Assembly: GCA_030704615.1 (NCBI GenBank)
Contig: CM060733.1
Location: 73,346,001 to 73,410,000, forward strand
Length of the DNA: 64,000 nucleotides
Reading direction: 5' to 3'
Source of the DNA: Takakia lepidozioides
Taxonomy: Eukaryota; Plantae; Bryophyta
Made by a program: the position numbers and the translations under genes. Positions 715 through 53,525 of this stretch are shown one piece after another. The notes under the pieces are model-generated. The model saw only the letters and a program-made list of their open reading frames with translations, made no database searches and was not told where the DNA came from. Numbering within the stretch: the stretch's first letter is position 1; every line of letters starts with the position of its first letter.

Positions 715-2255
715 GAAAATGCGAATGCGGCGCCGCATTTCCGTTAAGTACCATCACGAAGCTACACATCCGTACTTGTTGGAAGAAAATGCGGCACCGC
801 ATTTCCGTTCCACCTTCACATACCTTAGTTGTTGAACGGAAATACGGTGCCGCATTTCCGTCCCACAGCTCCATGTATGAGATTCAAAGGGAAATGCGGC
901 GCCGCATTTCCGTTCCCACTTCACATACGTTAGTTGATGAATGGAAATGCCGTGCCACATTTCCGTTCGGGAAAGTATAGAGGTCTCACCTGGACAGAAA
1001 TGCGGTGCCGCATTTCCGGTCTGGAAAGTTTGAAGGTCTCACATGGATGGAAATGCGGCAACACATTTCCGTAGCACAGCTCCAGGCCCAATATACAAAA
1101 CGGAAATGCGGCGCCGCATTTCCGTTCGAGAATGTCGGAAGGTGCGACTCGACGGAAATGCGGTGCCGCATTTCTGTTCCCGTTGCGCACGATTTTCAGT
1201 CAGAATGGAAATGCGGTACCGCATTTCCGTTCTGTAGAGTATTAACGTCTGACGCTGGCGGAAATGCCTTCCCGCATTTTCGTTCCACAGCTCCATGCCT
1301 CACATACAAAACGGAAATGCGGCGCCGCATTTCCGTTTTGGAATGTCGGATGGTGGGACTCCGACGGAAATGCGGTACCGCATTTCAGTTCCGATGTTTC
1401 AGGATATTTCATCAGAACGGAAATGCGGTGCCGCATTTCCCTTTTGAATCTAATACATTCCGTTCTGGAATGTTGGGAGGTGCGACTCGGATGGAAATGC
1501 GTGCCGCATTTCAGTTCCGATGGTTCACGATTTTCAGTCAGAACGGAAATGCGGTACCGCATTTCCGTTCTGGAATGATGGTAGGTGCGACTCGGATGGA
1601 AATACGGTGCCGCATTTCAGTTCAGATGGTTCACGATTTTCAGTCAGAACGGAAATGCGGTGCCGCATTTCCGTTCTGGATAGTATGAATGTCTCAACGG
1701 TCGGAATTGCGCTGTATGAAGCTGTCGGAATCGCACTCGGCTCCATGCATCAGATACAAAATGGAAATGCGGCGCCGCATTTCCGTTCTGGAATGTCGAA
1801 AAGTGCGACTCGGACGGAAATGCGGTGCCGCATTTCTGTTCCCGTTGTTCATAATCTCAATCAGAACGGAAATACGCATTTCCGTTCTGGAGAGTATGAA
1901 TGTCTTTTAAGGACGGAAATGCTGCAGCATTTCTATCCCTCAGCTCCATGCATCAGATACAAAATGGAAATGCGGCGCCGCATTTCCGTTCTGAAATGTC
2001 GGAAAAGTGCGACTCGGACGGAAATGCGGTGCCGCATTTCTGTTCCCGTTGTTCATAAATCTCAATCAGAACGGAAATGCGGTACCGCATTTCCGTTCGA
2101 CCTTCACATACCGTGCTTGCTGGATGGAAATGCGTTACCGCATTTCCGTTCTGGAGAGTATAAAGGTTTCCCCGGACGGAAACTCGGTGCCGCATTTCCG
2201 TCGCTCTGGTGCATGACCAAGATGCAATACGGAAATGCGGCGCCGTATTTCCGTC
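715..2255. repeat. M1 palindrome array: about 28 units of CGGAAATGCGGCGCCGCATTTCCG at ~52-55 bp period with variable spacers
   Basis: Perfect 28-bp palindrome at 1099-1126 and perfect 34-bp palindrome at 1307-1340. Centre variants are GGCGCC, GGTGCC, GGCACC and GGTACC. Unit count is by eye. Confidence 0.95.
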
Positions 2256-6275: not shown

Positions 6276-6826
6276 GCTTGGCTTGCGGTCCACATACAAT
6301 GGTACGCCCATCCTTTTCGGATAGTAGAACTGTACTGCTGCCAGTACCTCAGACTCTGGCCACAGAAAGGTCCGACATATGTCTTGCCTACCAGTAACCT
6401 GTTTTGCTCGAACTAATATTACTATATCGTTCACTTGTTTCCACGTGCATGTATTTTTGTATGTTGGAGGGTTCATGTTTTTCTGCTTTCCGAAAACTTG
6501 CTTTCCTCATTCGACCTCCGACAAGGAAATGCGGCGCCGAATTTCCAAGTATCGTCGTAGGTACCCCCAGAGGCGGCCTTCGCCAACACCAAACCGCTCC
6601 GAAATTTCGCACGTGCGAACCCTAATGCGGCACCCTATTTCCCAGTTCAGTTGCAAACCTTTCCCGCCGAATACCCGAAGAAGACAGAATTGTGAAGTAC
6701 TGCAGACTGTATTGGTGCAGACTCCATTGGTTCAATCGCGGCAAAAGGGTCAGCTTCATTCCAATGTTAAGGCATGTAAAACCGCGGAATACTCTATACA
6801 GGCCAGTATGCGACGTCCTTTTGCAG

Positions 6827-6890
6827 GAGGTTTACTATTTCATGAGCGCATGAGCCCATGAGCCTATGAGCCTATGAGCTCATGAGCGGA
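6827..6890 (+). repeat. M2 left TIR with tandem (C/T)ATGAGC subterminal motifs
   Basis: catgagcgcatgagcccatgagcctatgagcctatgagctcatgagcgg; mirrored by GCTCATG repeats at 20451-20510. Confidence 0.9.
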
Positions 6891-7510
6891 CATCCGCGGA
6901 ATTGGAATTTTCCTGCCTTTATTGACGGTGTTATGTCCTCTTACCTCGGTAATAGGGTCTGTTTCTCCTGGTCCAGGATGCGGAATGAGGAATTTCGGCG
7001 CCGTTATTCCCAAGAGCAGTGTGCTAAAATGGTGTTTTGAAGACATCCACCGGGGTATTTCGGCACCGAAATTACCTCTTAAAATGTGATATAGTGCGGT
7101 ATTTAATGGCGCAGAACGGGCAATTTCGGCGCCGAAATACCCAAGTGGAATGTGGTGAAGTGCCTTGTGCTGAAGGCTTCCATCGCAATATTTTGGTGCA
7201 GTAGTGGAATTTTTGAGGCCCATATAACGAAGGCGCAAACTGGGCTATTTCGGCGCCAAATTTCCCAATAGGAATGTTAGAAACGGCAGGGTTTTCATGG
7301 CTTCAAGTTCCCGGGTCGATGGTGTGCATAAATTACTTGTAGGGTTCTTCACTGAAGTTTGCGTCTCTTCTGCTTTTATTATAGATTTTGGTTGGCGGAA
7401 GAAATGTAGGGAATGGACAAGCAGTCTGAACACAATGATTTTTCAAATCGTCAATATATTCATTAAGTGTTTTCAGAACTGTACAACAAAAGGATCCAAA
7501 TGAGACTTTG

Positions 7511-10500
7511 CTATGGTGAGGATCCGCTATCACTGTCCGATGCATCCCCGCCCTCATGCAAGGATGGCTGCCTTCCACCTGCCTCCGAACCTGCAGCCGC
7601 TACCGCTGTTACTCTGAGAAGCCCTCCCCTCAAAAATACCATCCTCACCAGCCGGAACTGTCCACTGGGTGCGGAAGTGTCCTCGACATTCCCCTCGCTC
7701 TCGGACGCGGATTCTATTACGAACTTCCCTACTCTGCCTTTCACAATTCTATGTTTGGCCTCACGCCTCATTATAATTCTCTGCTCATTCCCGTATGTCA
7801 ATTGCTCTAACCGAGTAGGCCTATCCTCCCTCCTGATGGCTTCTTTGGCAGCCGTGTCTGCATAGGCTGGTAGAAAAAAGGGCTTCTGGGGACTCGCGAG
7901 AAACGATTTTCTGGCAAAGAATGGCCGATGCGATTCTGTCTCCTCCTCTGCAACAGGGTCCGATTCGAGCAAGTCTCCCAGCTTCTCCTCGTCGGACGAC
8001 TCTGCAAGGCTGAGTGTACGCACAAACATAGAATGAAGTACATTAGAGAATTCAAACAGGGAATCATCGGCAGGTTGCATGGTCCCTACAACCGAAACCA
8101 ATACACTTACTATGGTGCAACTCACTCGAAGACAGGCATTGGGGGAAGCGGCTTCGGGCGCCCCTGCATCGAACGAATTTCCCGGACTTCCTCCTCTTCA
8201 TCTTCCTCCTCTCCTTCCACGTCCTCTTCTGCGTTTTTGGGATCCTCAGTCGAGGCAGACGCTGAAGGCCCGCCAAATTGTAATCGTACAAGGCCGTATC
8301 CCCCTCAAATGAGAACACAAATCGGTTCGACATCCTTCCCGCCCACATACAGGCACCTGCGAATTCATACGACAACCACAGCCAAACTCAAGAATGAGTC
8401 GCTTCCTCGCACAAGCAAACATACAGAAACGGAAATGGTGTCAATTTCGGTGCCGCATTCAATTAACGTTCTCACCTGTATTTGCAGTGACGTCAAGGAC
8501 CCTGCCTTCAACATCCGTACACGTTTCCATGAGCGTCTGGATGAATGCAGGACTCCTGGTCCTGCCATACCTCCATGGCTTGCCCGACAAATCACAAAGA
8601 ATGTCCTTCTCTCCCACATGGTTGAACAGGACGTTATACTCCAGTGGATCAACTGTGGAATCAACAAGTCTTCCTGCTTCACGTAATTTGAATTTCGAAT
8701 GTTCCTTCACGAAGCAAAATGCCTGAAAGATAAGAGTCTGCAGAGAAGGAAATGAAAACGTCAGAGGTGGCCTACATGTACAGGGGCAATTTCGGCCAGA
8801 AATTGACATAGCAGAGGAGAACCACAGCATACCTTCTGGCCATCGTTGAGAAGACCCTGCGTGTTGATGCAAGTCCAGATCTTTTTCAGGATGGGTGCTG
8901 CACTTCTCCCCGTCCATACTTTGATATCATTCTCAGTGACTTCTCCATCGGCTGCACACAACAACACAGCCAACGTCGTCCAACATGTTGGCTGCGAACC
9001 CGAATGTGTGGCTCCAGTATCGTTCGTCGTACTTGTTCCACCAGGGAACTGAGCCCAGCCCCAGTATCTCCTGCCCATCCGGGATATCCACAAGGATCAT
9101 GTCGATGGAGGCTTTCACCGCCCTGCCCCCGACTGTGCTCTTTTTGCCGTGGCTCATCGCCACAAAATACTCCATCATCTTTGTGTAGCCAGGAGTGTCC
9201 TCCATATCATTGCCAGTGGCCTTCCTCTTCCCCTTCCCCTGGTGGGCCTCGATCGCCTTCCTCAAACTCGTTATCTCCAGCCTTCTGGTCAGAGCAGTTA
9301 GGAAATTTTCATTAACACACTCCACAATTGTGGGTGTTTTGAGGACTTCCCTGCCCGCAATCTGCACCGCACGGTAGGGTCTGCCAGGTGCATCCTCGTA
9401 TAGTGATCTCTTCGCAGCCGACCCCCCGGAGCGCTGGCCCTTGTGAATTTTCGGACGAGGTGTGGCCCCCTGGGTGTTTTCCTGCTGGAAATCGTCGTCG
9501 AATCCTCCTCATCTGGCTGACTGTGTTTGCTGCTTCTTCTTCTTGGGTGTGGGGGTCTTCGTCTCTTGCCCCTGTTTGCGCGTTCTTTTCTTCCTGTCCT
9601 TGGGCTGCTCAGCTGCCTGCTTCTCCATCTGCTCCTTCGCCAACGCTGCCGCCTTGGCTGACTTTCTCAGTGCTTTCTGCTTGGCTGCCTCCTCTGCTTT
9701 CAGTCTTTCCGCGTCCTCTGGTTGGGGATCCGATTGCGCCTTCATAGCCCTGGCATTCGCTTCCTTCTTCAAGTTAACCTCCGAGAGGTCAACGGTCCCA
9801 CTTGGGAGATCCACATACCAGGGGCAGTTTAGCTCGGCATGCCACTCCTTCGCCATTACTTCTGTGTACATCGTTCCACGACCTCCAGGTGTCCTCCACG
9901 CCAGGAAGAATGGTGGAACCCTTTGAATGGCTCCGGACGGAATGAGTGCAAAGTTTATGTACCTGCAATCACGAGGCAGTTCAACAAAAATCATTCTACC
10001 GATGCATCATGCAAGTGGAAGTTGTCAATGCACAAGGTATTTCGGCACCGAAATACGGAGTGGACCGTGCCCCAATTACCCAGAACTCACATCTTGCAGA
10101 GGTATATTTCGGCGCCGCAATATCCATCGCTGCTTAACCAAATCATCTAAACTGCAAATAGGGGATGCATTGTCAGCAGATTACCTGAACAGGACACGCA
10201 TTGCCGCTTTGTCGGCACCCTCCTGCTCTTCGATGTATACGCTGCGTCTTGCCTTTGCAATTTCTCTGAAAAAGAGGTTTGCGAAGCGCCCTCGCCACGA
10301 CTGCACGTAGTTCTCCATTGTCTCAGGCTTCGTCCAGTCGATCTGTAACTTGAAAGTGGTGGTGTTGCAGTCCAATTGCTCCTGGGCGTGGGTCAGTACC
10401 TGCATCATGGCAGGTTTCCAAAACATTCATGATTTTGAAATTGCGACGATGTCCAACACAGAATAGGAGAAAATTATACCTGATGCCACCATCATGACAT

Positions 10501-12399
10501 TGAGCCAGTCGTTCATTTTGTCGTCTGTTGGCTCGATGGGAAAGTGGTACAGCAGCTTCGTGTTTGTATGGCCGTTCCAGATTCGCAGCCACCTCGTCTG
10601 CAGCCACCTCACATCGGTCAGACAAGAGCTCCAACATAAGAATCGCGAGAAGTCACAAAAAAAATAAACACATGCTTACCTTCTCCGCCGGCTCAACACA
10701 GGACACTGCGATGTGATGAAGTTTCTCCATGGACATTTCCGGTTTCATGGGTCTGGAGTAATGCAGTCCTATCTCCGCCAGGAACTCGGCACCAAGACCA
10801 GGGTCAGCGATTGCAACTTGCTTAACAAGTTTGGACCTGTACTTGGTCCGGGATTGCTTCCCTGCCTGCACAATATGACTCTCTATCGACGCGTCCGCCT
10901 TGTTGGGGGCATCATTCTCAAAGAACTGCCTTTTGGCATAGGCCAAGTCATCCCTGATTTCGTCTGCATTCCCATACCCAGCAGATACAGTCAGGCCACG
11001 GATCCCTGCAACAAATAACATTAAATTGATACTGAAATTTGAGATGAACCTCACCGAATAGAGGATCTCCACCATGGCGTCCAGTGTTGGTCGGTACCAG
11101 GTGCGATCTGCTTTCGCTAGGGACTTCCTGTACAGCTCGGGATCGAGGGACTTTTGGAAGTCCGTCAGCGGAGCTGTCCCCACTTCTTGCACTCTGTAGA
11201 GCGTATGTGCCAGATGAGTTTCCACGAAGGCCCTCTCTGTTACCCTGCCATGGAGAAAAAACAACATGAAAATATGATTTCGGCACAGCAATCCAATTTC
11301 CAGTTCATAGAGTGCATGACAGTGGTGAACATTGCCTATTTCGGCGCCGCAATAGGCAGTACACAAGGATGTAATTGTATACTTACAGATTTATATCCGC
11401 CATGGCACCCTTCAACAGTCCTCTGTCCCTGACGTCCACCTTCACGACAATGCAGTCCACCATGTAATGCCAACTGATATCTTGCGGATGCATTTCAGCA
11501 ATGTACTCTGTCCAGGCAAGCATCCTGTGGTTCCCGTCCCAAACGAAGAACATCTTCCCTTCCATGTGTGCGAATGTGGGATTAGTCTTCAGATAGGCTT
11601 CAAACTCGGCATTAACAGTGTGCCAGTGGGGGCCCCAATTCTGAAGCTCCTCTGCAGTGGGGCCCCTTGTGACACCCTGGTCATTCTCAATGGAAACGTA
11701 GAATGCTGCCGACCCCCGTCTGTACCCTTCTCTGAAGTTGTGCTTCAGTCGATCGATATCCCCTGGCAGTGCTTGCCTTACAACTGGAAGGCTTACCATG
11801 CGACACAAAGGAACTTTAAGGTTCTCGGGATACACCATGGAGCCCAAAACGCGGCCTATGTTGCTATGAGTCTCTGCCAGCAACCTGTTTGCTGCTATGT
11901 TCATGTCTCGTGCGCTCATGAGCATACCCGCCACCAGTTTCTTACTTGTATCACCTCTGTCACTTCCCTCACCCCTCTCACCAGCCTGTGTACTGTCCTG
12001 GAGGTTTTGCTCCTCCGCAAGCTCCAGCAGGTTCTGATCGTCGCCAAGTCGTACCACGTTATCGTCCTCTCCTTCTGTCAGTTGAATGGGCCGCCCTTCT
12101 GCAGATCCGACTCCCACATCTCCAGCGGCCTCCACCGCATCTGTGTTTTCTGAAATTGACTGCAAACCCAATATCTCCGCTTCCAGTCTCCCTAGGGGTT
12201 TTACTGGCGAAGCCATGGGCTCCTTCTGCTTTCTCGGCTTCCGAACTCTAGGTGGGCTTTTCGGAGGCGATATCTGAGGTGTTGAATGAGGACTCGTCTG
12301 CCTCGATGCACTTCCACCTTGTGAGCGCAGCACCCGGGCAGGAGTATCCAAAGTTGACTGTGTTGCCTCGCCCCCCTGCGATCCCTCCCCAGCTCCCAT
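7511..12399 (-). CDS. M2 accessory multi-exon gene: ParB/Srx-like domain plus beta-class N4/N6 DNA-methyltransferase-like domain (predicted single spliced gene)
   Basis: Successive minus-strand ORFs joined by GT-AG introns (e.g. 11245-11386, 9963-10184, 8357-8475). ParB-like FFVWDGNHRMLAW (DGNHR 11524-11538). Motif IV-like IDMILVDIPDG (9074-9088). RSPAFIQTLMETCTDVEGRVLDVTANTG|TCMWAGRMSNRFVFSFEGD (8300-8560). Collinear homologues occur in M3 and M4. Confidence 0.75.
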
Positions 12400-13058
12400 G
12401 TCAAACAAACAGGAAAACATGAGACACTGCACGCCAAAACAAAGGTGTAAAGGAATATTGCGTATGGAGTGCTTCACATCCGCGAAGCACGAATCTCTCA
12501 CTGGTGGGCGATCCGAGTCTCCGGATAACGACGTCTGCATTTCATGCATGAGACGGCTTAAGTCGTGTCGTCGGCGGCTTCCCAAAATCCCGCGTCCTCC
12601 TCTTTGCCGGAGTCGCCTGACCTTCCACAAACTCTATGCTACCACTATGCCGCATAAGGAGAGGAAACGCAGGAGAACGTCACTGCAGAAGGGCAAGGAG
12701 CGAGAGAGCGAAGCGGTGGAACATGCAACCACTATGCACGAGCAGATGCGTAAGCAGCCACGTCTCCCGAAGCGTTGCCACCGTCCACCACTTTCTGCCG
12801 TATGGGTGATGAAGAGATTGTGACCCCTGACACGTTCGCACGGATGAAGTCGACTGGAACACGACGCGTGCCAGTTCCAGCCACCAGTGTATGACGGTTT
12901 ATCCGAATTGCGGCACCGAAATACGTTCCGTTCACCGGATGGTTCCCCCGGAGCAGCCGGCATTGAATGAAATATCCGCACATCATGAAACCCAACCGCC
13001 ATGAAAATCCCCTGCATATGACATTCAACAGTCAGGTCGGTACGTTTCATCAGCGGAC

Positions 13059-14820
13059 GGATGAATTTCGGCGCCGAAATTCATCCTATTCAAGTGCTTT
13101 CATACAAACTTACAAATTTCGGCGCCGCAATTCATCGCTTCCAAGTCCTCATTCGTCATGAGCAAACCTGTCGGTGGGATATCGGAGCCGGAATTAATTC
13201 CGGGACAACGGAAACGGCTGCACTTCGGCACATTTCATCCATATTTCGGCGCCGAAATTCATTACGAAACCATCCATATTTCGGCGCCGAAATTCATTAC
13301 GAATATGTCCGTCCACGCGTAGACGAGGTGAAATCATCCATATTTCGGCGCCGAAATTCATCGCTTCGCAAGTCCTCATTCGTCATGAGCAAACCTGTCG
13401 GTGGGATATCGGAGCCGGAATCAATTCCGGGACAACGGAAACGGCTGCACTTCGGCACATTCCATCCATATTTCGGCGCCGCAATTCATTACGAATATGA
13501 GCGTCCGCGCGTAGACGAGGTGAAATCATCCATATTTCGGCGCCGAAATTCATCCAGAGCGAAGATTAAATCTGCACGATGCTATGCTTTGCCGCCATCA
13601 TTGCCCCTGACGGATGCTGTCCATGACTGTTGGACTTGCCATTTCTGGACATTTAACTATAATTTCGGCGCCGAAATTATACTTTATGTGCGGCAACGTC
13701 CCGTGCGAAAAAGACCACTTCATGGATACTGTCGGTTTCAAATGAAAAAAAAACGGCTAAAATGCAATTAATTTTGACAGAAGTGGTTTAATATGCCGAT
13801 TTCTCCATTAAATGCAGAATATTCCTGTTATATTCGTCGGAACGGGGTATTTCCAACGATTTACGGAAAATTATCATCCAAAACCAAAAAGTAAGTGCCG
13901 GGTTTGGACGAATTTCGGCGCCGAAATTCATCCGTCGCATAGAAAATGTAATATTAGAGTTACTCATTGCGGACAGTAAGGATGAATTTCGGCGCCGAAA
14001 TTGATCCATTTCAAAGAAAAATAAATATTGGAGGGAAGGCATTGGATGAATTTCGGCGCCGAAATCCGCCGCTAAAACCCTGAAAAGAATTTGGAGGGAT
14101 GAAGTCGTCTGAATTTCGGCGCCGAAATTCATTGCTCGCGAAGGAAAAAAAAATTTCTGGAGGACTTCGGATGAATTTCGGCGCCGAAATTCATTGCTCG
14201 CGAAGGAAAATAAAAAATATCTCCTGGACTTGGAATGAATTTCGGCGCCGAAATTCAATGCTCGCGAAGGAAAAAAAAAAATCGAGAGGATTTTGGTTGA
14301 TTTCGGCGCCGAAATTCATTGCTCTCGAAGAAAAAGGGAAATTAAAAGGGAGTACTTGGATGAGATTCGGCGCCAAAGTTCATCTGTCGCAAAGAAAAAT
14401 AAAAACAGAAAGGACTTCCGATGAATTCTGGCACCGAAATCCATACGCAGGGCAGCAGAATTAGGGTCGGAAAAGGAGATGAAGAATGAATTTCGGCGCC
14501 GAAATACATCCATTCTGCCGAATCAGGATTACTGTCATTCGGAAGTCGGCACCGATATCCGGACACGTGGTCAATCACGACTGTAATCAGGAACACATTT
14601 ATCCGTATTTTGGCATCTAAATTCAACCCATATGTGCAGATACAATTTAATGAAGAAGAAGTTCATCCGAATTTCGGCACCGAAATCCATCCGTTGGGTG
14701 CTTGGTCAGTTTTATGAGGTAAACAAATTACGATTTCTGTTGCCAGAATTCATCCCTTGGCTTCCAAAGCTGTTACATGACAGAGATGTTCATCCAGATT
14801 TCGGTGCCGAAATTCATGGG
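13059..14820. repeat. M2 intergenic palindrome array: GATGAATTTCGGCGCCGAAATTCATC units, including a ~227-bp direct duplication
   Basis: Perfect 28-bp palindrome at 13059-13086 and more than 20 further copies. Duplicated block starts near 13145 and 13372. Confidence 0.95.
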
Positions 14821-15065
14821 AAGGCCTGATTTATTGTACCCCAAGTGGTTGTACATTACAATTCAGGCACCAAATATCCGATGTGAACTTGCTGTTTTCG
14901 TCCGTTTTTTTAACGTACGTTACACACCTTCATCTTTACGTGCACTGATCACCCATCATGTTGGATACGGAATCCTCCAGAAAATCATTTGTGTTATTAG
15001 GTAGGACACACTCTTCTCATTGCAGGACTTCGCTGCGGAGCGTACCGAGAGGTCCCGTCTTCAAA

Positions 15066-18000
15066 ATGGACTCCCGTGTTTGGGTCAACGTGTACTTCCA
15101 TCCTGATTCTCTGAAAGCTAAAATACCCTGCGACCAAGGATTTGCGATTGTCACTGAGCAGTACTTGTGTGTGAAGTTCGGGCTCCGCCCTGGAACGGTG
15201 TTTTTGGAAGAGGAGACGAAGGATGCTTATGGAAATTTTCTGGAAAGTGCCGTCATTCTGCATGCAGATTTCGGAAAAGGCAAAGAGTGGCGGCTCCCAG
15301 CTTCTGAATCCATCCGGTACAGTGCCATTGGTGAAATCGTGCCTAAAGAGTTCCCACGCTGGAACTTGGTTGATCCTCCTTCCACAAGAGGGTCTGGGGT
15401 GCAAGATGTGAAGGATGTGGGCACCTCTTCACAAGCAGAGAAGCCCAAACATGTGAAAAGGGAAATCCAGGAAAACAGGGAAACAGTCGTCCAGGACTTA
15501 TCCAGTGACGATGAAGACTGTATGGTCCTTCCATCGTATGTTTCGAAGTCGTCCGTCACTAGGAGTGTTCAGCATACACCGTCCGACTCAACTTCCGTCC
15601 GCTCAGTAATCGACATATTGCGGAGGATGAAGACAACGGGTTCCCGCTCCAGTGACCTTCTTAGGCTTGATTACGACAAAACTCCAATCCATTCTGTGGA
15701 AACTTTGCCTGATGTTGTGGATGGGAATGCTATCTACGAGTTCCCTCCAGTGCCGGCAGGCGCAGGCCCAGACGGCATGCTCGCAGGAATGAACAGGAAA
15801 CATGACGGCCACCCTTGGTGTGTCACCAAAACTTCATCGTCCAACCTGGGTGATGGAGTTCGAGTGAGATATGTATTGTGTGCTGGGCATCTTAAATGTT
15901 TCTCGAGCACATGTTACCATTACACTAGCAAAGGCACCAGGAATGAGACTGACTGGATTGGCAATTCGTCGACCCCATTTTGGCCTCAAGGTAGAGTTCC
16001 TGCAGGGACGTTCAAGTGTGCCCATTGCAACGCAGCCCCTACGTGCATGGCAGTGTGCAACGCCAAGCAGTACTACGTCGGGACCGTCGGCCCAGCGTGC
16101 ACCAGAGCATGCATTCACATCGGAAAGCATGAGCACCCCCTCGCCAGAGGCAATTGCAGAGTCGCTTTTCAACAAGCCCAGGATATTATCAAGGAGGAGG
16201 TGAGGTTGAGGCCGGGTGCAAAACCAAAGCAGATACAGCTCGCATCGGCACATAGGATTGCAATTGGCAGAATAATGTCGGAGGACGGAAGCACAAGAGA
16301 GAAGCTGGGCGAGGGGGACATGAAGGACCTGCTGGAAGCTGTCTCCCATGTGTGCAGCCCCAATGTCAGGAACCACATTGTCAGCTGCAAGAAACGAATC
16401 GGAAGAGGATCAGACATGCACTCCATCTTGGAAGTGAAACGCACATGCGGCTACGACTTCATCCAAGGCAGCTTCTTTCCTGGTCAAGGCTCGGAGATGG
16501 ACAGGTGCTTCATATTTAAGATGTCAACGTGCGGACCGGGGAGCGGCGTCGATTTGGTGAAGCGGATGACCAGTGGAGACCTCTCAAATTGTTGGGTCAT
16601 GTTTGACCACATCCGGCGAATTACCAACCACGATTGGGTGACAATGGGGGCACATGTATACGACCCACATTGCAGAAAGTTGATGACCATTGCTATCTGC
16701 GAAATGAAGGGAGAAGACACAGATTCGGAGTTGCATATGTGGCGCGGCAATTAATGAGCAAATGGCGAGAGCCAAGTTGCCCCCTCCCGATTTTAGGGGC
16801 TTCATGGCTGACAATGCCCAGGCAAACTGGGCTGCAGTTAGGAGGGTATATGGGGACGACCCAAAGACTCCAATGGAAGGAAAGGAGAGATCTTGCGGGT
16901 TCCACTTCATGCAGAGTTTGACGCAAAACACGAAAAGGTTCGTGGCGTCACGCCACCGGCAGGATCATATCAGTATGTGCCTAGCGTGGAAAAATGCGAA
17001 TTCCATCGACGAGGCGGAGACCGAGTTTGCAACCATACGCGCCTGGTGGGTGTCTTCAGGGGCAGTGGATGTGAAAGATCAGCCAGAACTGCAAACGTGG
17101 CTTGCGTGGTGGCATTATAGATTCCGCCAGTTTGGAGACTACATGAGACAGGTAACACATTTCTGTACTTGACAATTGTTCTGTTTTGTGCTTGGACATT
17201 CTCCACAATCAGTGACATATCTAATTTCCTTCAACAGGACATGAGCTTGGAGGATGACACGGATATGCCGACGACGAACATGGCCGAATCGGTGCACTCT
17301 TCCTGGCGTGCTTCCTCTGCAGCACATCTCGTTGACATGTTGACAGCAACAACAGAAGATATTGTGAGGGCCATCATGCAACAATCTCATTACTACCAGT
17401 TTCTGGGAGGAAAGCAATGGGGTATCGGACCAGACAGGCAGGAGATGCTGATGAGGGCGGCGCATCGTTCGACCGATCCCAAAAAATGGACTGCTGCATT
17501 GCGGGAAACTATAAGGTCAACGCCGTTACACAGTCGGGGGAACTGCCTGGAGGGCGATGTCCGCAGCCGGCCGGTGAAGAGAAGAATTGAGGACATGCCC
17601 GGAGGGGATGGGGATTCATGGAGATCAGATATGAACATCCGCACTCAACCTCGGGGCGCAACGATGTTGCGTCCCACGCCTCCACGAAGCAGGACTCGTA
17701 CCCCCTCTCCTGCAGCATCCATGGAATCGCTGCCAGACTCGGGACAACATGCCGAGGATGGGCATTCTGCTCCTGTTTTCGTTACCCAATACAACATTCC
17801 AATCGTGGAGCGAGATGTGTCGGCCTCGCAGTGGAGAATTGCACGGACCCGTCCGACATTTCGTGGCAAATGTTGTGCTGTTCGTGTCGACACCAACCAG
17901 AGATGCAATGAGATGATTCGGAGGAGCCCGCAGGGCGGTGTGCCTGCCCCTTGCTTCACAGGGAGATTTGTGTGCGCAAAGTTTGTGGAGGCCACACTGA

Positions 18001-18665
18001 AGGAGTTTTGGTTCTGCAGGCACGACATCATGTCGTGTGTGTTCGGCAAGCCCAAGTATGGTGTACAAGGCATGCCTGAACCACCGGCAGTCTGGCCTGT
18101 GGCAAGTGGTACAGATCTTACCCTGGAGGAGGCAGACGCTCTAGGAAGTGCAGGGTTTCGACTGGTGGAGAGGACAGACGTTCCACGAAATCCAATTCCC
18201 AATCGTCATCCTCCTCCCACGAGAAGCTCTTCGCCCCGCATACCGGTGGGTGACCCCGCAGCTTGGCCCACCCATCGGTGGGGTAAACTGAAAAGACGGC
18301 GGCCACCAACAAAGGCGAACGACACCAGGATGGCCAACGCTCTTGCAATGCCCTGCATAGTGCAAGGTTGCAGGGATGTTCCTCACCCCGGGATGGGGCG
18401 CATATTTCAGTTGTCAACAGCCGGGTCTGCTGCGCGCAGTGTCGTGTATGCAATCACGGTTTCACAGTACCCAGCTTGCAACTGTGAGGACTTCCTTGTT
18501 ATGGAATCGAGGAATGCAGCATACGTCCCCTGCAAACACCTTTATTACATTTTTATGAAGCGCATGAGTTGCATATCCGCAGTGGACGTCTTCATCCATG
18601 CTCCAACACTGAGTTTCAACGAGCTGCACAAGGCCCTACGGCAGGATACTGGTCGGACTGCTTGA
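15066..18665 (+). CDS. MULE transposase of M2 (GCM/WRKY-like, MULE DDE, Cys-rich insert, SWIM); near-intact with one frameshift at ~16748
   Basis: ATG at 15066 (MDSRVW). ORFs 14958-16754, 16762-17172 and 17169-18665. Intron 17152-17237. Motifs WVMFDH, FMADNAQA, CGFH, TNMAESVH, and SWIM CNCEDF..VPCKH. Confidence 0.9.
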
Positions 18666-19121
18666 CATTCCACATTCGGGAAGGAGTTAGTGGCAATTAT
18701 ATTACATTCATCTTCTTGCACCCTATTTTTTTGTGAGGAATTATACACTTGGTGGTGCCGCATCGCCATGGCTACATGTGAATTTCGTCCACCTTTATGA
18801 GAAGACTCCAATTTGCTACAAATACATTGTTACTGTTCTGCAAATGTGATGCCTTTACAAGATTGCTAGTTCTGTGTCCCAGTGGGAAGGGTCCTACTGC
18901 ACATTCCAGCATTTGCATACTGCACCTTGTGCAAACAGCAATCCATACGACAAAGGACACGTCCCAGCATACTGGCAGTGAATTGCAAATAACATTAACA
19001 GAAGATTATCGAAGCCTGTATATTCCCCATATGGCACAGGGAAGCTGCTTGATTTCTGAATGAAAATGTATGTGCCATGAGTGTCAGCAAGTTGAAACAT
19101 GTCTACTCTAGCATGCAAGAC

Positions 19122-19742
19122 CTATGGTCCCCTCGCCCAAGAAGAAGGAACTCGAACTGGCCTCTCAAGGACCTCCTGAGTGACCGGGTGCCTATATTTG
19201 AACAAAATGTCAGTGGTTTCTGTCGCCCGGTTGAAACTAACGAGGATGTCGTGTTTATCGATAGCGCCCCCTTGGTAGAAGGACATTTTCACAGTGGGCC
19301 CTGTGTTCCCCTCCTCCTCATCCTCATAACTGAAGAGAATGTCCCCACTTTCCGAGCCAGTCCGTCCACGCGTAAAGTTTTCACCTATGCACTCATCATA
19401 CGTCCACTCGCAACAATTCCAGCGATACAGCAACGCTGTGCGTGATCTGTTCGGCTCCCACACATGCGGAAAGTCCAGGTCCATGATGCGTAGGAACCAC
19501 CTGCTCCCCAGCCGGGGTCCAGGAGAGTCGTGCAATCCTGGAAGAAACTCCATTGCTCTCAGCTGGACAAGTCGAGGATCGTTCCCTGTAAACATCCAGG
19601 AAGACAATGATGTCGTCTGCTTTCGGGAAAATGACTCCCGTCTGGCGTCGATAGATGTGATTCGGGCACGACATGGCCTCACGACACAACACGAACTCAA
19701 AGCAGGGAGGACATGGGCACAACAGAGAAGAGTGAAGAGCAA
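19122..19742 (-). CDS. Hypothetical protein inside the 3' region of M2
   Basis: 206-aa ORF with globular-looking composition in its C-terminal 170 aa. No recognisable motif; no equivalent seen in M1 or M3. Confidence 0.35.
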   Translation of the reverse strand: MLFTLLCCAHVLPALSSCCVVRPCRARITSIDARRESFSRKQTTSLSSWMFTGNDPRLVQLRAMEFLPGLHDSPGPRLGSRWFLRIMDLDFPHVWEPNRSRTALLYRWNCCEWTYDECIGENFTRGRTGSESGDILFSYEDEEEGNTGPTVKMSFYQGGAIDKHDILVSFNRATETTDILFKYRHPVTQEVLERPVRVPSSWARGP

Positions 19743-19794
19743 AATGAGAGCAAGGCCTCCCTCACCGTAAGGCGGGTATTTGCTCTCCGACGCC

Positions 19795-20100
19795 CAATTT
19801 CGGCGCCGTTATTACATGGAGTGCGGAAGCTTCAGCCGAGAATTTTGTTTCCGCAGGTCAATTTCGGCGCCGTTATTGGTTGCAATCCCCAGCCTTCAGC
19901 CGGGTATTTGGTTTCCGGACCCAATTTCGGCGCCGTTATCGGCTGCTCTCCGGTGGCTTCAGCCGAGTATTTGGTTTCCGGGGCCCATTTCGGCGCCGTT
20001 ATCGCCTGCATTCCGGAGGATGCAGCCGGGTATTTGGTTGGCAGAGCCCAATTACTTTCACCGTTGTTGGCTTCACTCCCGAGCCTTCAGCGCGCTATTT
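19795..20100. repeat. M2 3' subterminal tandem array (~63-bp unit with AATTTCGGCGCCGTTAT)
   Basis: Four clear units near 19796, 19860, 19923 and 19987, plus degenerate copies. Confidence 0.85.
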
Positions 20101-20724
20101 CTTTTCCTGTTCCCAATTACGGCCTCGTTATAACCAACCATCCTGCACTTCTGCAATAGTACTATCCACGGTTATAGGTCGCCATTGCGTTTTCGGAGTC
20201 TGCAAACCCGGATCCTAATTCCGCTTGCGTCTCTGCCTCTGGGATAATTTCGGTGCCGTTATTGCCCAGAATTCTGTTATTCTATGACCTGGCCTGGCGG
20301 TCCATGAGCCTGGGCTCCAAGTCATGAGCGTACACTGGTACTCATGAGCGGAGTACTTCCAGCATGAGCGCGGAAATCTTCGATTTTTGATTATTTTATA
20401 GTTTTTGGCCCGAAAAAAATCTGCCGAAATTCGAAGTGTGTTACTTTGCGGCTCATGGGTTAGCCATGCCCGCTCATGAGCTCATGAGCTCACCGCTCAT
20501 GAGCTCATGGAATAGCAACCCCCCTTTTGCAGTGGTATACTGGATTTCCCGTTGCACGGTCACTTATTTCCATGAGCGGATCTAAAAAACCATGAGCGGA
20601 CTTGTTACTGACGACATATCTTCGCCGCATTACATGATCTGGAACGTCCAAAACGGCAAGGTCAAATAAAAAACTATTATTTTAATACTTGTTTAATCTG
20701 CCGCATTTCCAAATTTGGAGGAGT

Positions 20725-40814: not shown

Positions 40815-41055
40815 GGGGGCTGCTATTTCATGAGCGGCATGAGCATGAGCGGAAAAAAAAAAAAACATGAGCGGGCCGAATTGTGTCCACGGAAATAGGG
40901 TCATGTGGACTCGTCATAGCAATGAAATGCAACATTTTATTGCAAATTTGGTGGCAAGCCACGTCTATACAAGTGTGTCCTAACTGTCGTAGCAGGAATG
41001 GGAACTACTCTCCTACACCTTCCGAGAACTTGGCCCTCCTTCTTCCTCATCCCCC

Positions 41056-44000
41056 TCATCCCCCCCCATCCTCCGAGCTCTGTGATGCATCGGTTGCAGT
41101 ATGCCTCTCAAAAATGTCGTCCTCTCCTTGGGGGACTGTCCACCTCACCTCCTGGGAATCTTCTGCCTCTTCTCCCCCACTTTCCTCAGCAGAATCCAAG
41201 ACAAATCTACGAGCCCGACGGGCTCTAATAGCTGCTGCCTCCTCCCTCATCTTCATTTTCTTGAGGCTTGCCTCGTCTAAAATCTGTTGTACACGACTAG
41301 GTTCGGAACACCTCCTAATGGACACCGAAGCAAACCGGGCAGCATAAGTAGGAAGGATGAAGTCCCTTTCTGGACTAGGCATGAAATCCCCCCTGGCAAA
41401 AAAAGGCACGTTCCTCCTGCCCATGAACTCCGGTGTAGACGTCCCTCCTGCCGTACTTGGCATCCTACAGTAAGAACAAATCCACTTCAAGAATGTCAAT
41501 ACCAGCAGAAGCAGAAAGGGTAATAAGAGAGCGAAGGGAGGTGCCTCACGAAATCTGGAGGCAACTTACAATGCGACCACTCACTCGTACACTGGGGCTC
41601 CTCGGCCTTGATCCCAACTTGTTCCTCCCCTGCTCCTTCTCGGATTTTTCCTCATCCTCCGAGGATGCCTCTTCCTCTTTCGGCAGACGTTCAGCCGCTG
41701 CAAGTTCCGAGTTGTGGAGGGCAGTATCTGGCTCGAAGGCAAACACATGCCTGTCAGACAACGTCCCTGCCCACATTGAAGCACCTGAGGAACAAAGCGG
41801 GCGTTAATAGCTTGCGGCATGCAATTGCAATCGGGCCAAGGGACAAACTGAGCACGTGAAGGCTTACCCGTGCCGCATGTGAGGTCCAGAATTCGCCCTT
41901 GGACATCCGAGCACGTCTCCATGAGGGTTTGGATGAAAGCAGGGCTCCGGGTCCGGCTGTACCGCCACGGTTTGCCTGTCTTTGTGTCCTTCGGCATACT
42001 GGAGTGGGGCACATAGTTGTAGAGGACATCGTAGGTAACAGGGTCCACAACGGCATCAACAAGACGACCGTCGTTGCGGAATTTGAACATAGACCCTCTC
42101 TTCATAAAGCAATATGCCTCAAACACCAATGTCTGCACATCCAACAAAATAGGGATCAACTCCGGGATCTTGTTTAGATACACCACAATATGAGGTGAAT
42201 GAAATAGATTGATAACTTACACTTTGGCCCTCTGTTCGCAACCCCTGTGTATTGATGCAGAACCATTTTCTGAGGACGACCGGGGTGACACTTTTCGGTG
42301 TCCACCTTGCCACCGCATTCTCTGTGGTCTTCCCTCTTGTGGCAAGGACAACCACACATCCACCGTCATCCAGAAGCATCCCCGCCAGCCCAAACCGGCT
42401 TTCCAGTAGTCCTCAATAAACCTGTTCCAGGTGGGCACACCATCCAGGCCCTCCAGCAGCTCCCCATCTGGAATGTCGAGGAGAATCATGTCGCAAGCTC
42501 TCTCCACCTCAACCCCCCCCCGAGTGCTCTTGCAATCCGTGCTCGCAGCCGTGAAGAATTCCATCATGGCTTCAAAACCAGGGGTGTCTTTAGGCTCTGT
42601 ACCGGCAGCCTCTTCTTGGCTTTCCCCTTCTGCTCCGCCAGAGACTTGTTGTGTGCCACCTTCTTCGCCCTGGCAGCGAGAGCGTCAAGGAAGCTCTCAT
42701 TGACGCATTGGATGATGGTTGGAGGTTCTAGCTTTGGCCTGTGCGTAAACGTCACCGCCGAATACCGCCGTGTAGGCTCGCCCTCAAATGCCAACTTCTT
42801 GGCAGAGCCAGTCCCACTCCGAACTGACTTGGGAACCCGGACGACCGGTGACGGGTAGCAGCAACAGCAGTCGCAGGACCTTGAACAAAGTTGTCGTCCG
42901 AGTCACTCTCTTGGGTCCCCTCCTGCGCCTGCTGCTCCGATGCCCCGATGGTTTTCTGTTTTTTGGGTGTTACTGCACTCACCTGTTTGCTTGTCCTTTT
43001 CCTTTGGCCTTTACTCTTCTCATTCAATTTCTCCTGAATTCCTGTCTGAGCAAGCTCTGCCGCTTTCCTGGAGTTTGCAAGCGCTTTTGCCTCTTTTGCA
43101 CCCAGCGGAGGCAGCGGAGCCCGGTTTCGTCGGGCCTCAGCATCCAGCTTCAATTGAAACTCAGATGGGTCGAGCATGCCGGGCGGAAGGTCCACATACC
43201 AAGGGCAATCACGCAAATGTTCTAGATGCCACTCCTTCACAATATTGTCAGTGTACATGGAGTCAGCCCCAGGGTTCCTCCATGCCAGGAAGAATGGTGG
43301 CTCGAAAGACAGATGACCTTTCTCCAAAAGGGAGAACTTGCAGTACCTGCATTCATGAAAAACACAATGAGGTCCATGAACTGCAAATTCGGCACCATTT
43401 TCCCAGGTTGGGGCGGATCTGAGTGGGCCTAGAAATGGAAAAATGGCGCCGAATATCGGTTTTCGGTGACTACCACCCTAGGGACTTAGCCATCTTGGGA
43501 GCCCTGAACTGGAAATTCGACGTCATTTTTTTCCGGGTTTGGCCCGAAGATGGCTAAGTCCCAGAACGGCAATAGGGCCTAGAACTGGAAAAATGGCGCC
43601 GAATTTCCAGTTCAGGCCAGCCACCTAGGGACTTAGCCATTTTCGGAGCCCTGACTGGAAATTCGGCGCCATTTTCCCAGGTCAGGCCCGAAAATGGCTA
43701 ATCCCACAAGGGCAATAGGGCCCAGAACTGGAAAAATGGCGCCGAATTTCCAGTTCAGGGCCAGCCACCCTAGGGACTTGGCCATTTTCGGAGCCCTGAC
43801 TGGAAATTCGGCGCCATTTTCCCAGGTCCGGCCCGAAAGTGGCTAAGTCCCATATGGCCTTGACTTGGAAAAATAGCGCCGAATTTCCAGTTCAGGGCCA
43901 GCCACCCTAGGGACTTAGCCATTTTCGGAGCCCTGACTGAAAATTCGGCGCCATTTCCCAGGTCCGGCCCGAAAGTGGCTAAGTCCCATATGGCCTTGAC

Positions 44001-46710
44001 CTGGAAAAATGGCGCCGAATTTCTAGTTCAGGCCAGCCACCCTAGGGACTTAGCCATTTTCGGAGCCCTGATCTGGAAATTCGGCGAAAAATGCAAGGAC
44101 TGAAAGGAAGGCATCGCGTATGTACTTGTACGGAAGGCGCATTGCTGCTTTGTCCGCGTTCGGCTGGTCGGTGAACTCGTGGCTCCGGCGGGCATGTGGT
44201 ATCTCCCGAAAGAATAGTCGGTTTTGTAGTAGAGCACCTCGTCACATAGTCGCGTAGGCTCTCTGCTGCAGGAGAAATCTCCATCTTGAACTGATGTGCT
44301 TGTGTGTCCAGCTGCTCTTGCGCATTCGTCGTCACCTGTGGAGATTCTCCATCAGATCGCATTGCTGAAAAAATACAATGAATCCACCCCTACAAGAGTA
44401 GAAGCGCCAAACGAAGCGTGGGGAAGTACCTGAAACCACCATGTCATGCGGTTCATCCACATGTCGAATGTGGGGTCAGACAGTTTGTCCGGTTTGGGGA
44501 AGCTCCACATGTCCCTTGTACTTTGGGAACCATTCCAGATTTGGAGCCACCGGGTCTGTCCAACCACCCAGCATATTCGTAAGCGCCAAACACCACAAAA
44601 AACGAGTTGTTGCCACCACAATTTGGTTAAGAATGTATCACCTTTTCTGCACCATCCACACAGGATGTGGCTAGACGATGGAGCTTCTCCAATGTCATCG
44701 TGGGCTTCAGAGCGCGGGAGTAGTGCTTCCCCACCTCCACCAGAAAGTCGGCACCAAGGGCGGGATCAGCTATGGCCACGTACTTTATCATCCGCGACTT
44801 GTTTACTTATGCGGGCCCTCACCTCCGCAGCTTGAGATACGATTCGAGTGCCGGGAGGGTTAGATTCTTCTCTCTGACTCCATGTAGGACCTCCGCGCAT
44901 GTGCCAAATCCTGCTGAATTTTCGTCTGTCAAGAATGCGCACATAAGATTAGAGATCCTGCTCAACACTTTTTCTTCTATTGGGGGAGGAGAGACAGATT
45001 AGCTCAACAAAATAGTCAGGAGCTTTACCCGAAATATGTAGTCCACCATGGCATCCATGCTCAGCCTATACCAGGTTCTGTCTGCCTTTGCCTCCGACTT
45101 GCGCAGGAGGTCGGCACTGAGCGAATTGGCAAACTCTTGCACCCCCTGCTTCCCGACATCCTTCACTCGGAAGAGCATATGGGACAAGTTGGTGGCAATG
45201 AAGGCATTCTCAGTCACCCTGCAATGCCACATTTCCATGAAACAATTCTGAAATGGGAATTTACAACAAATATGAGGATTCGCAATGAAATGACTTACAA
45301 TCGGATGGGTCCAAAAAGCAAGAGGCGTTGTAACTTACGAGTTGATGTCCGCCATTGCAGCTTTGAGAAGACTGCGATCTTTGGGCCCGCAACCTTCAGC
45401 ACAACACACTCCACGGCGAAATGCCAATCGAGGTCGTTGGGGTGGGCTTCGGCTATGTGCTCCATCCATGCCAGGAGGCGATGATTGCCGTCCCACACGT
45501 AAAACATCTTTCCGGACAAGTGCTGGAAAAGAGGATCAGTAACAATCGATCTCTCGAACTCCTCATTTCGCCTTTGCCAATGGGGACCCCATTTGTCCAC
45601 CTCATCGGAAGTGTGGGCACGGGAAGCTCCGTGGTCGTTCTCAATGGAAACGTAAAATGCGGCAGACCCCATTCGATATCCATCCCGGAAAGAGAATTTC
45701 AGCTTGTCGATATCGCCTTGGGAGGGCAGGTCTCACCACCTGCAAAGACACCAAGCGGCAAAGGGGGAATTCGAAGCTTGGCCGGGTACACCATGCCCCC
45801 CAGCACCCTGCCAATGTTGCTGTGGGTTGCCTCCAACATCTTGGCAGCGGCCAACTTCATATCCGCCTTGGACATGACGTCTGCTGCAGAAGGGTTCTCC
45901 GGCAGCCCACCAGGACCGCCAAATCCAGCCTGTATGCTGCGGGTTTTGGGGCCTGGGGGATGTCCGGGAGGATGTCATCCTGATCAGAAAGCTCGGTGTC
46001 GTCCTCCTCAACATGGTGAACCACCGGCAAAACCACCTCGAGCACTCTCCCTGTCTCTACTGCCATCTCCCCGCTTCACCTCGAACTTGCACAATCCGTG
46101 CTCTTTGTGGTGTTCTTTCCTCTCCTCCACTCTCCACCGTATGGGTAATTGCGGGGGCTGCTCTTGTCCGCGATGGTGTAACCGGTGTGTTACTTCCTCT
46201 TTGTGGTGTCTTGGAGGGATCCACTGTCTCTGTGCATCCCTCGCTTACATTGGCATCTGTCATTTGGGCACCCCTGGCCTCTTCAGTGGCCTTTTTTCTT
46301 TCCTCCTGGCTAGCCTTCTGTCTCGCCTGTTCTTTTGCCCTCTCTTTTGCCCTCTCACGGGCTTTCTGTTTCTTACTAGGGCTAGCAGCAGGGGAGCCCT
46401 CCAGGGGACCACCTTTGATTGAGGAGGAAGGAACACCCTCGCGCACTGCTCACTCCCCCTCCGCAGCCCGTGACGGCTCTCTCGCCGGGGATTGCATGTG
46501 CTTAGCTTTCTTTTTCTTCTTTGCGTGGGCGGGCCTTACTGCATGTGCATCAACAACCTCCATTGCCGGATCTGCTGTCCTCACGTCCTCACGCCCTTCA
46601 CCTGCCATGCCGCCTGCACCAACCTCCCCAGTGCCTATTCTGTCGTACCCTCGCTGCAGGTCCTCCCGTCCACCAACAAAAGGTTGAAGTTTGCCCTCTC
46701 GCCCCAAGTT
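41056..46710 (-). pseudogene. M3 accessory gene (ParB/Srx-like plus beta-class MTase-like), many frameshifts
   Basis: GKMFYVWDGNHRLLAW (~45471-45515); CDMILLDIPDG (~42465-42495); RSPAFIQTLMETCSDVQGRILDLTCGTG (~41867-41950). Exon order is collinear with M2. Confidence 0.8.
43430..44090. repeat. Intronic tandem array in the M3 accessory gene (~120-bp unit, two GGAAAAATGGCGCCGAATTTCC-type motifs per unit)
   Basis: About five units with alternating motif orientation. Confidence 0.9.
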
Positions 46711-47384
46711 GGGCGATTCAAAAATGCGATGAGTTGGAGCGGTCGATGATACCACCTGCGTGCCGGGCTCGTTGTCACTCTGTCATTCCAAAATCGTGAG
46801 AACCAACATCGGTGCCAATACCAGCATCGCAACGAGCAGCGCAACACCATAAACAACAATCATGGAACAACAATGAAAACAAAACAAGTTTAGGAAGTAT
46901 GGAGTGCCATGGAACAACAATGAAAACACATCCAACCAATGCCAAAAAATGACATGCTTCCAGCGATGCCAGGATGAAGATGCAAAAACAAAGCGAAACA
47001 ACAAAGCGAAAACGAAAGCGGAAGCGAAAGCGAACAAAGCGAAAGCAGAAGTGGCTTGTCTGAGAGTACTCGGCTTCAGTTGGGTTGTGAGCAAGACACT
47101 GGAATCTCCTGCTGGAGCTTAAGTTTGGCCATGCGAGAGATTGGCCGTCGTCCGTAGTACAAGCTTTCAACTTCCGCCGCGGTCTGGATGTGAGGTCTCT
47201 CTCAGGAGAGCCACGCCCTTCAGGCGGCATAAGTCCCAGCCAAAATGGAAAAAAAGATCTCAGTCTTTTGGGGTACATGCCTCGAATAGAAGTTAATCCA
47301 AGATTAGCATCATTATTAGGGTACGTATCGAGGAAGCCATGTGTCGCCAGCCCAAATAAAAACGGACGGCGGTAGACATTTAAT

Positions 47385-48860: not shown

Positions 48861-49316
48861 CGGGGGTTGTTCTCTGTAGGACAGGTTCCGACTCTCTGCC
48901 CGAGGCCAACTTCATAAACGTGGCGCCCTGGGATATCGGGTGCTGGAATTTTCATGAGGTAGTAATGGACGGCACGGTGCCGGCGTTCTCCCCTTCAGCC
49001 GACATCATCCGGCCGGCCCCCCACTTTTTGACTGCATACCGTTGGCAGTATTGCGCAAAAAAACCAGGGGCCGCATTCTGAGACAACGGTTCATTAACAC
49101 TCTGACTGGGATTTTTGAGATAGGTGGCTCCCTGATTGGATCAGGCTTCGTCGCTCGGACAAATCGGCACCGCATTCCTTCCCATCGCTGCATCCCCTTC
49201 TACCAGGGAGCTTGCCCGCACGCCATCCTGGGAGTCTTGTGTGCACATCTCCCATGGCGGAAAACCTGAGCGCTACAGTGTACTGCCCTCCTCATCGAGC
49301 ATAGAGCTTCATTTCC

Positions 49317-52800: not shown

Positions 52801-52914
52801 GTGAACGAGCTGCACAAACTCCTCCTTAGGGATTCCAGAAATCATTGATGGGGCAAAGGGAATCCTCCATATGGATATTTCAATTGCATTTTCATGTATC
52901 AGACTTTTTTTTTC

Positions 52915-53290: not shown

Positions 53291-53525
53291 ATGTCGCGGG
53301 AATTGGCAGAGCGGAAGACAAAATATCATGAGCACAACTCTCAAAACTACAATTTCCCCTTCAAGGTGCCGAATAATATATTTGTTTTTTCTGACACATT
53401 TCATTAAATTAATGTTTTATAATGTTTTTTATTTTCAAAATTTGTACTTCTGCTCATGAAAACCGATTGTCTTGCTACTCCGCTCATGCCGCTCATGCTC
53501 ATGAAATAGCTAACCTCCTGAGGAG

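Follow-up and report, generated by a model that had tools for sequence, protein, structure and literature searches.

Repeated amplification of palindromes in predicted introns of an accessory gene of putative Mutator-like elements from Takakia lepidozioides

Introduction

Palindromes specific to each subfamily of a group of related DNA transposons occupy predicted introns of the elements' own accessory gene, and their arrays there arose several times and by more than one route, either through copying of whole units of the central array or as units with unmatched spacers. Four such elements, M1-M4, are interspersed with LTR-retroelement pieces in the 64-kb stretch of Takakia lepidozioides DNA analyzed here, hereafter the window. 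Each subfamily has one inverted repeat of 16-22 bp with a core of the TCGG-NN-CCGA type, which is found between the genes, near both ends of the element and in the accessory introns, and almost never in coding sequence. On balance, we favor the reading that these palindromes are candidate binding sites of the element's own accessory protein, which would serve self-protection in a VANC-like manner.

Elements of the Window and Their Transposase

The elements and parts of elements on which the analysis is based are as follows.

6826..20522: M2, read as Mutator-like, located within the right end of M1, with short terminal inverted repeats (TIRs) carrying CATGAGC repeats
6817-6825 and 20523-20531: target duplication of M2, 9 bp (10 bp also fits)
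15069..18665, plus strand: M2 transposase, D-D-E with CxxH and a C-terminal SWIM-like finger, no palindrome match
40815..53516 (about): M3, with a 9-10 bp target duplication of its own, a frameshifted accessory gene (minus strand) and a transposase (plus strand)
721..2252: central palindrome array of M1, 53-bp spacing

M2 was inserted into the subterminal sequence on the right side of the related M1, whose right TIR is at about 20760-20830, and the empty site (joint 6816 to 20523) is present in contigs of two public runs, X1 and X2. The accessory gene of M1 would fall outside the window. In M2 and M3 the transposase (plus strand) and the accessory gene (minus strand) are divergent, with a palindrome array in between, and the divergent gene layout recurs in the outside loci L023, L071 and L044. 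The CATGAGC repeat is common to the TIRs of M1-M3 and distinct from the palindrome; it is a candidate site for the transposase itself.

Inspection of the transposase alignment by eye reveals D, D, CxxH and E, and a SWIM match has an E value of 0.019, below the cut-off; Pfam gave no MULE match. We take the D-D-CxxH-E pattern to indicate the MULE type. M2 and M3 also show the MULE hallmark of short TIRs with target duplications, here of 9-10 bp (expected 8-11 bp). The M2 and M3 transposase is therefore probably Mutator-like, as read from these residues and the weak SWIM match. Sola-1 elements make a 4-bp target duplication, and membership in that group is ruled out by duplications of 9-10 bp. 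No other transposase type was found among 54 long ORFs adjoining the outside accessory genes.

CpG at codon positions 3-1 reaches 0.74 of expected in the elements versus 0.21 in the neighboring LTR frames, which is compatible with less historical methylation and also with age differences. A 228-codon open frame of M2 (19122-19808, minus strand) between the transposase and the right array has no Pfam match and is possibly a third gene. Arrays of 10-bp units of the CACAGCC type, tied to LTR-retroelement segments, lie at 30784-31032, 37532-37704 and 54925-55180.

The Accessory Protein

8067..12399, minus strand: accessory gene of M2, predicted to have 8 exons, both limits likewise predicted

The M2 gene is laid out as a ParB/Srx-fold domain (exon 1), a helical middle, a lysine-rich linker and a beta-class amino-methyltransferase-like domain (exons 6-8). 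A full HMMER search gave 619 homologs, with the family also present in Riccia sorocarpa and Adiantum. A word-seeded homolog search with exon 1 returned nothing, PDB sequence searches returned nothing useful, and Pfam showed no significant family for pieces of the window and no VANC-type family in these pieces or in full-length homologs.

The exon-1 model (pLDDT 95.6) has a ParB/Srx fold and is nearest to Noc, ParB, KorB, PadC and sulfiredoxin; the matches are modest (Foldseek E 0.008-0.1; VIA Z 7.4, rmsd 2.6-2.8, 91-92 residues aligned), and all top rows of both searches are of this fold. In the Atlas, exon 1 is similar to DUF3723 and ParB_N clusters. The clusters nearest to the segment 11389-11898 (minus strand) are fungal DUF3723 proteins. 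DUF3723 is presumably a common cargo of Starship elements, and if this link is true, two kinds of mobile-element cargo would be joined by one ParB-like fold.

The C-terminal part, seen in an M4 exon, resembles N6_N4_Mtase (for a Riccia homolog of 1207 aa, the Pfam E value is 5e-5), and the model of this domain from a Riccia homolog matches CcrM with an E value of 3e-11. The catalytic position reads DIPDG in M2 and M3, DLPDG in M4 and D[LMI]P[ST]G in Riccia homologs, and not [DNS]PP[YFW]. Because D-x-P-x-G stands where DPPY is expected, methylation activity is doubtful, and the domain may be a reader or scaffold instead of an active enzyme. The models thus portray the accessory protein as a predicted ParB/Srx fold joined to a fold of the beta-class amino-methyltransferases whose catalytic motif is changed. 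Within the parts that they covered, the ParB-fold and methyltransferase-fold regions, no DNA-binding domain was identified, and enzymes that do not bind DNA (Srx, SerK, SbnI) have the ParB/Srx fold as well, which speaks against a role of the accessory protein at the palindromes. Several large Riccia sorocarpa contigs also encode 37 related methyltransferase-like proteins (P0161-P0197), many automatically named trimethylguanosine synthase, which are probably transposon cargo.

Predicted Introns of the Accessory Gene

M2 and M3 each have seven GT..AG introns with matching positions and phases, and M4 has at least introns 1, 4, 5 and 6 in common with them. Those that hold palindromes in M2, and the corresponding array-bearing introns, are listed here.

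9963..10184, minus strand: M2 predicted intron 5, 222 nt, GT..AG, phase 2, splitting R-Y; two palindromes
11245..11386, minus strand: M2 predicted intron 1, 142 nt, phase 2; palindromes at 11277 and 11338
8738..8832, minus strand: M2 predicted intron 6; gapped palindrome near 8788
8357..8475, minus strand: M2 predicted intron 7; palindrome at 8444
43347..44125, minus strand: M3 intron 5, 779 nt, phase 2; 10 palindromes in alternating orientation
61530..62599, minus strand: M4 intron 5, 1070 nt, phase 2; 14 palindromes, 189-bp unit of three motifs
59887..60423, minus strand: M4 intron 6, 537 nt; 6 palindromes (60020-60271)

The introns rest on comparative evidence, namely GT..AG ends, common position and phase, and contiguous homologous proteins, and are accordingly called predicted. 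Removal of intron 5 joins RVLFR-YINF in M2, RLPYK-YCKF in M3 and RRYR-YINF in M4 (hyphens mark the junction). The first-pass annotation had named the following exon RY[I/C][N/K]F, a label that fits M2 and M4, where the junction reads R-Y, and has to be amended for M3, which reads K-YCKF. M2, M3, M4 and the copies of other plants agree in the position and phase of intron 5, which is 93-171 nt long in four outside loci. When the joined intron-5 ends are used as a profile, the alignment bridges the junction in five of eight long homologs, all five of them annotated proteins of Riccia and Adiantum that read R-x-x-F-R-Y unbroken at this point. At the intron 1 junction, two database proteins (P0001 and P0035) read across, and the exon end is matched by the termini of 47 of 150 relatives. 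Intron 3 is absent from the outside loci, where the sequence is contiguous.

Public contigs add the following. X1 and X2 contigs retain introns 1 and 5, as expected of DNA. Contigs of run X4, whose status as RNA is a guess, cross the predicted donors 10679, 10479 and 8832 unspliced, and no splice joints were seen in the presumed RNA contigs over the M2 gene. One X4 contig ends at 9965, the point at which a spliced transcript would depart from an unspliced one; it is given no weight because it was seen in one study only. Two further contigs of the presumed RNA runs X3 and X4 (2138 and 2284 nt) match only 10722-10766; beyond this segment their reading frame stays open and encodes a diverged relative, which may be a copy that is expressed or has been domesticated.

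The M2 accessory copy has frame breaks near 10960, 10490, 9510 and 8960. Contigs aligned on M2 differ from it by numerous indels and by few substitutions (one of 639 nt has 2 substitutions and 7 gap letters), so some of the frame breaks in M2 may be assembly errors.

Placement of the Palindromes

For M2 and M3, the motif matrices were trained only on each element's own arrays outside the accessory gene. The window has no M4 array outside the gene, and M4 matrices were therefore trained on in-gene copies, either on intron 5 alone or on the other copies alone. The positions most relevant here are the following; none has a strand.

10039..10054: M2 palindrome in intron 5, 26.8 bits
10106..10121: M2 palindrome in intron 5, 26.2 bits
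12907..14813: central array of M2 palindromes, separating the two divergent genes, with a spacing of mostly 63-64 bp
6992..7262: four subterminal palindromes at the left end of M2
19797..20262: M2 right subterminal palindromes, 5 copies with one arm altered, 63-64 bp spacing
63188..63203: weak M4 match, probably exonic and the sole exception, scoring 11.9-16 bits with the different training sets

M2 has 5 matches in 831 nt of intron and 0 in 3502 nt of exon, which bears out the first-pass annotation, where none had been noticed in M2 exons, and M3 has 10 in 1353 nt and 0 in 3548 nt. M4 gives 20 intron matches and 1 exon match with intron-5 training, and 19 and 1 with training on the other copies. 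Shuffled introns gave a mean of 0.005 matches for M2 and of 0.005-0.06 across the elements, there are 0 matches in the three transposase regions, and the best background match in 24 kb of retroelement DNA has 12.3 bits. The binomial P value for introns versus exons is at most 3e-4, which is too optimistic because tandem copies are not independent; counting the three occupied introns of M2 instead gives P of about 0.007 (hand calculation).

The five ungapped M2 intron sites (8444, 10039, 10106, 11277 and 11338) score 16-27 bits. The first-pass annotation had listed six full-arm motifs; all six lie within GT..AG introns (1, 5, 6 and 7 of the seven), and that at about 8788-8789 needs a gap of one base to match (18 of 20 positions identical), so that it is not a full ungapped copy. 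The pair of motifs noted before the RY[I/C][N/K]F exon is present at 10039 and 10106 in M2 intron 5, and the same intron indeed carries arrays in M3 and M4. By TRF, the M3 array spans 43425-44086 (period 137, 87% matches) and the core of the M4 array 61803-62367 (period 189, 91% matches). The second M4 cluster, the six copies in intron 6, had been missed earlier. An ungapped motif is lacking in four of seven M2 introns and six of seven M3 introns.

The same placement was seen beyond the window. A metagenome scan yielded 80 related loci in 45 clusters, and in 12 outside loci there were 54 own-motif matches outside the exon matches (21.4 kb) and 0 inside (13.7 kb). This count rests on hand-chosen seeds and on those 12 of 21 seeded loci that had at least 2 upstream copies, the other 9 being left out. 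Automatic motif picking gave weak exon-overlapping matches in L033, L062 and L079, which were gone with hand-chosen seeds.

Copies at about 170-730 bp from both M2 ends might suggest that the palindromes are instead sites of the transposase, like subterminal repeats, with the intronic copies extending coverage for synapsis or self-activation. The N-terminal zinc-finger-like region of the transposase diverges among the subfamilies (32-50% identity), which is in line with this. However, the densest arrays are internal and not terminal, and the TIRs carry the other repeat, which M1-M3 have in common. Transposase identities among M1-M3 are about equal and do not track the palindrome arm sequence. 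Among the 15 outside clusters that extend 4 kb or more upstream, a divergent transposase of this type is still detectable in only three, whereas arrays persist next to the accessory gene, although decay of old copies also fits this. ParB-domain genes, moreover, adjoin inverted-repeat arrays in elements with an unrelated transposase (10.1101/2025.02.11.637652). AtMu1 transposase is reported to bind its own TIRs and, without a partner, to cause hypomethylation and activation of the family to which it belongs (10.64898/2026.08.24.746577), and for this reason transposase binding stays a live alternative, albeit a somewhat unlikely one.

Origin of the Intron Arrays

Arrays of accessory introns are not confined to one place. 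In L030, an 85-bp array of at least 14 units begins directly after the intron-5 donor, as does a 64-bp array in L063. Others occupy intron 2 (L011 and L018), intron 1 (L045), intron 4 (L079) and an extra intron of the linker region (L033, with the same array in L052). Comparison across subfamilies thus extends the intron-5 arrays of the first-pass annotation to two more lineages; since the arrays of other lineages use introns 1, 2, 4 or 6, intron 5 is not special. It is visible in 19 outside clusters, 2 of which have an array of their own unit there, and in most outside copies it is short and has no array. Because many M2 and M3 introns and most outside copies are without motif or array, the intronic sites are dispensable, which counts against the favored reading.

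That amplification in non-coding space was repeated and independent, as had been proposed, holds on three grounds. First, the spacers of the M3 and M4 arrays are unrelated (an equally high score is reached by 17 of 100 shuffles). Second, a tree built from 39 accessory proteins requires 4 changes to account for the four intron-5 arrays, and strong branch support makes 3 or more of these unavoidable. Third, the close kin L030, L011 and L045 have arrays in three different introns.

The routes differ. Intron units of L030, L011 and L063 are whole-unit copies of their own central array, spacers included (0 of 100 shuffles as high), and not new amplification from one motif. In M2 and M3, by contrast, intron spacers are no more like the central arrays than shuffled sequence is (36-65 of 100 shuffles score as high), and M4 likewise shares only the motif. 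Weak spacer likenesses link the M3 intron to the M3 right end (1 of 100 shuffles) and M2 intron 5 to the M2 left end (0 of 100), and these may reflect older copying.

Such whole-unit copies would lead one to think that the intronic palindromes are functionless segments of central arrays, spread by slippage, conversion or template switching and surviving where no frame is broken. Their patchy presence over introns and lineages fits this, and selection on the protein alone explains their exclusion from exons. However, the intron and central arrays of M2, M3 and M4 have only the motif in common, isolated motifs sit in four separate M2 introns (the intron 6 copy gapped), and half-sites are kept while centers drift. 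We therefore consider absence of function improbable.

AT-rich arrays of 25-60 bp units lie in or after the accessory genes of L038 (4800-6600), L028 (10100-11150), L050 and L069; they have no matching upstream array, are probably unrelated insertions, and were not counted. In L024 (9728-9964) and L057 (3706-3939), the first part of exon 6 lies in the opposite orientation to the remainder of the accessory gene.

Motif Architecture and Proposed Mechanism

The TCGG-NN-CCGA-type core is common to many families and the arms are family-specific; some outside families have other palindromes, and the L063 unit is palindromic only loosely. The central CpG is intact in 7 of 26 copies of M1, 26 of 40 of M2 and 2 of 24 of M4, versus 47 of 52, 74 of 80 and 38 of 48 for the outer CpGs. 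M3 is without this contrast (28 of 39 versus 51 of 78), and the contrast could reflect element age. The two central bases also differ between outside families.

Array spacings, picked by eye for this test, cluster at a period of 10.55 bp when one is taken per array (34 spacings, R 0.56, P 0.002 after the period scan); P is 0.02 for the 20 distinct spacings and 0.07, not significant, for the window alone. Spacings of 45, 51, 56 and 67 lie off this period. Kept arms, a variable center and phasing at about 10.55 bp fit a dimeric protein that reads half-sites on duplex DNA.

Conserved arms with a variable center also suit a short stem-loop, and VANDAL non-coding tandem repeats are described as RdDM targets (PMC10398659), so that the palindromes might act as RNA or single-strand hairpins, or as host-factor sites, on splicing or small-RNA production. 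However, variants that break an arm have been amplified within arrays (the M2 right array, the M3 intron and L030), families have retained the sequence of the core and not just its ability to pair, helical phasing points to duplex DNA, and there is no Rfam match in the window. The motif is also absent from the neighboring retroelement DNA. This explanation is highly improbable.

We return to the accessory protein. Judging from the motif architecture, the palindromes would be double-stranded sites of the element's own protein with ParB and methyltransferase folds. A dimer would read the two half-sites and tolerate change of the central two bases, and the protein would bind cooperatively on one face of the helix. 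The palindromes would collect in introns because these are free space inside the gene, where extra copies can arise and multiply. More tentatively, the bound protein might mark or shield its own element from host silencing, as VANC does. A more specific version resembles parS, in that a ParB-type nucleotide-gated clamp would load on the helically phased palindromes, those of its own introns included, and spread along the element, the non-canonical methyltransferase domain would lay or mimic a mark that blocks 5mC silencing, and arms and protein would co-evolve as a private subfamily address. We regard this version as unlikely.

Comparison With Known Systems

The accessory protein exhibits similarities to several known proteins, but there are also differences. 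It shares a ParB-type N-terminal fold with bacterial ParB, Noc and KorB. These bacterial proteins have repeated palindromic sites similar in length to the motifs described here. However, no ParA partner was seen, the nucleotide motif reads DGNHR, and the gene here is eukaryotic, contains introns and is fused to a methyltransferase-like domain. The latter resembles CcrM, M.RsrI, M.PvuII and bdelloid N4CMT in its fold and motif order, with the catalytic motif before the SAM-binding motif, but unlike beta-class N6A/N4C methyltransferases it has D-[LIM]-P-[STD]-G, in the window and in Riccia, without the aromatic residue of DPPY/SPPY.

Among eukaryotic elements, Sola1-1_Ec32 of the brown alga Ectocarpus has a gene of about 1100 aa, ParB-like and N4C/N6A methyltransferase-like, opposite its transposase, for which binding and modification of its own element have been proposed (PMC12477816). 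The elements described here have the same layout, a ParB and amino-methyltransferase gene on the strand opposite the transposase, and the likeness is one of domain description. Sola1-1_Ec32, however, belongs to Sola-1, whereas a Mutator-like transposase and a 9-10 bp duplication are found here, in plants, and the main text of that paper is without the word "palindrom" (PMC12477816). In Plavaka elements of the red alga Bostrychia, the ParB-like gene PAG3 adjoins inverted repeats in tandem arrays, to which its own protein has been proposed to bind, and Mutator elements of Chondrus have related accessory genes (10.1101/2025.02.11.637652). PAG3 is fused to a 2OG oxygenase, with the methylase as a separate gene, whereas the ParB and methyltransferase parts are fused here; the Plavaka arrays lie beside the gene, whereas those here are also in introns (10.1101/2025.02.11.637652). 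The accessory family is not described in the available parts of PMC4738411 and 10.1101/2021.02.12.428880, and no report of a land-plant version was found in the open-licence literature. ParB-type cargo genes have already been published for algae.

The closest analogy of layout is with the VANDAL elements of Arabidopsis, Mutator-like elements with an accessory gene and family-specific, tandem-amplified motifs in non-coding regions, as is also the case here (PMC5735166; PMC10398659). VANC21 binds a 9-nt motif in introns and in intergenic and terminal non-coding regions, where it is tandem-amplified (PMC5735166; PMC10398659). VANC motifs, however, are 8-9 nt long and non-palindromic, whereas those here are inverted repeats of 16-22 bp at phased spacing; VANC binding and demethylation are established by experiment, whereas the sites here are candidates; and the protein encoded by the accessory gene of the present elements combines a ParB fold with an amino-methyltransferase fold.

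These elements offer candidate protein-site pairs in several subfamilies with different arms, in a family that extends to Riccia and Adiantum, and the self-targeting idea is therefore directly testable. If it is true, the VANC layout would have been reached by an unrelated bacterial-type protein, as a general solution to escape from silencing, and sequence-specific epigenetic tools could follow.
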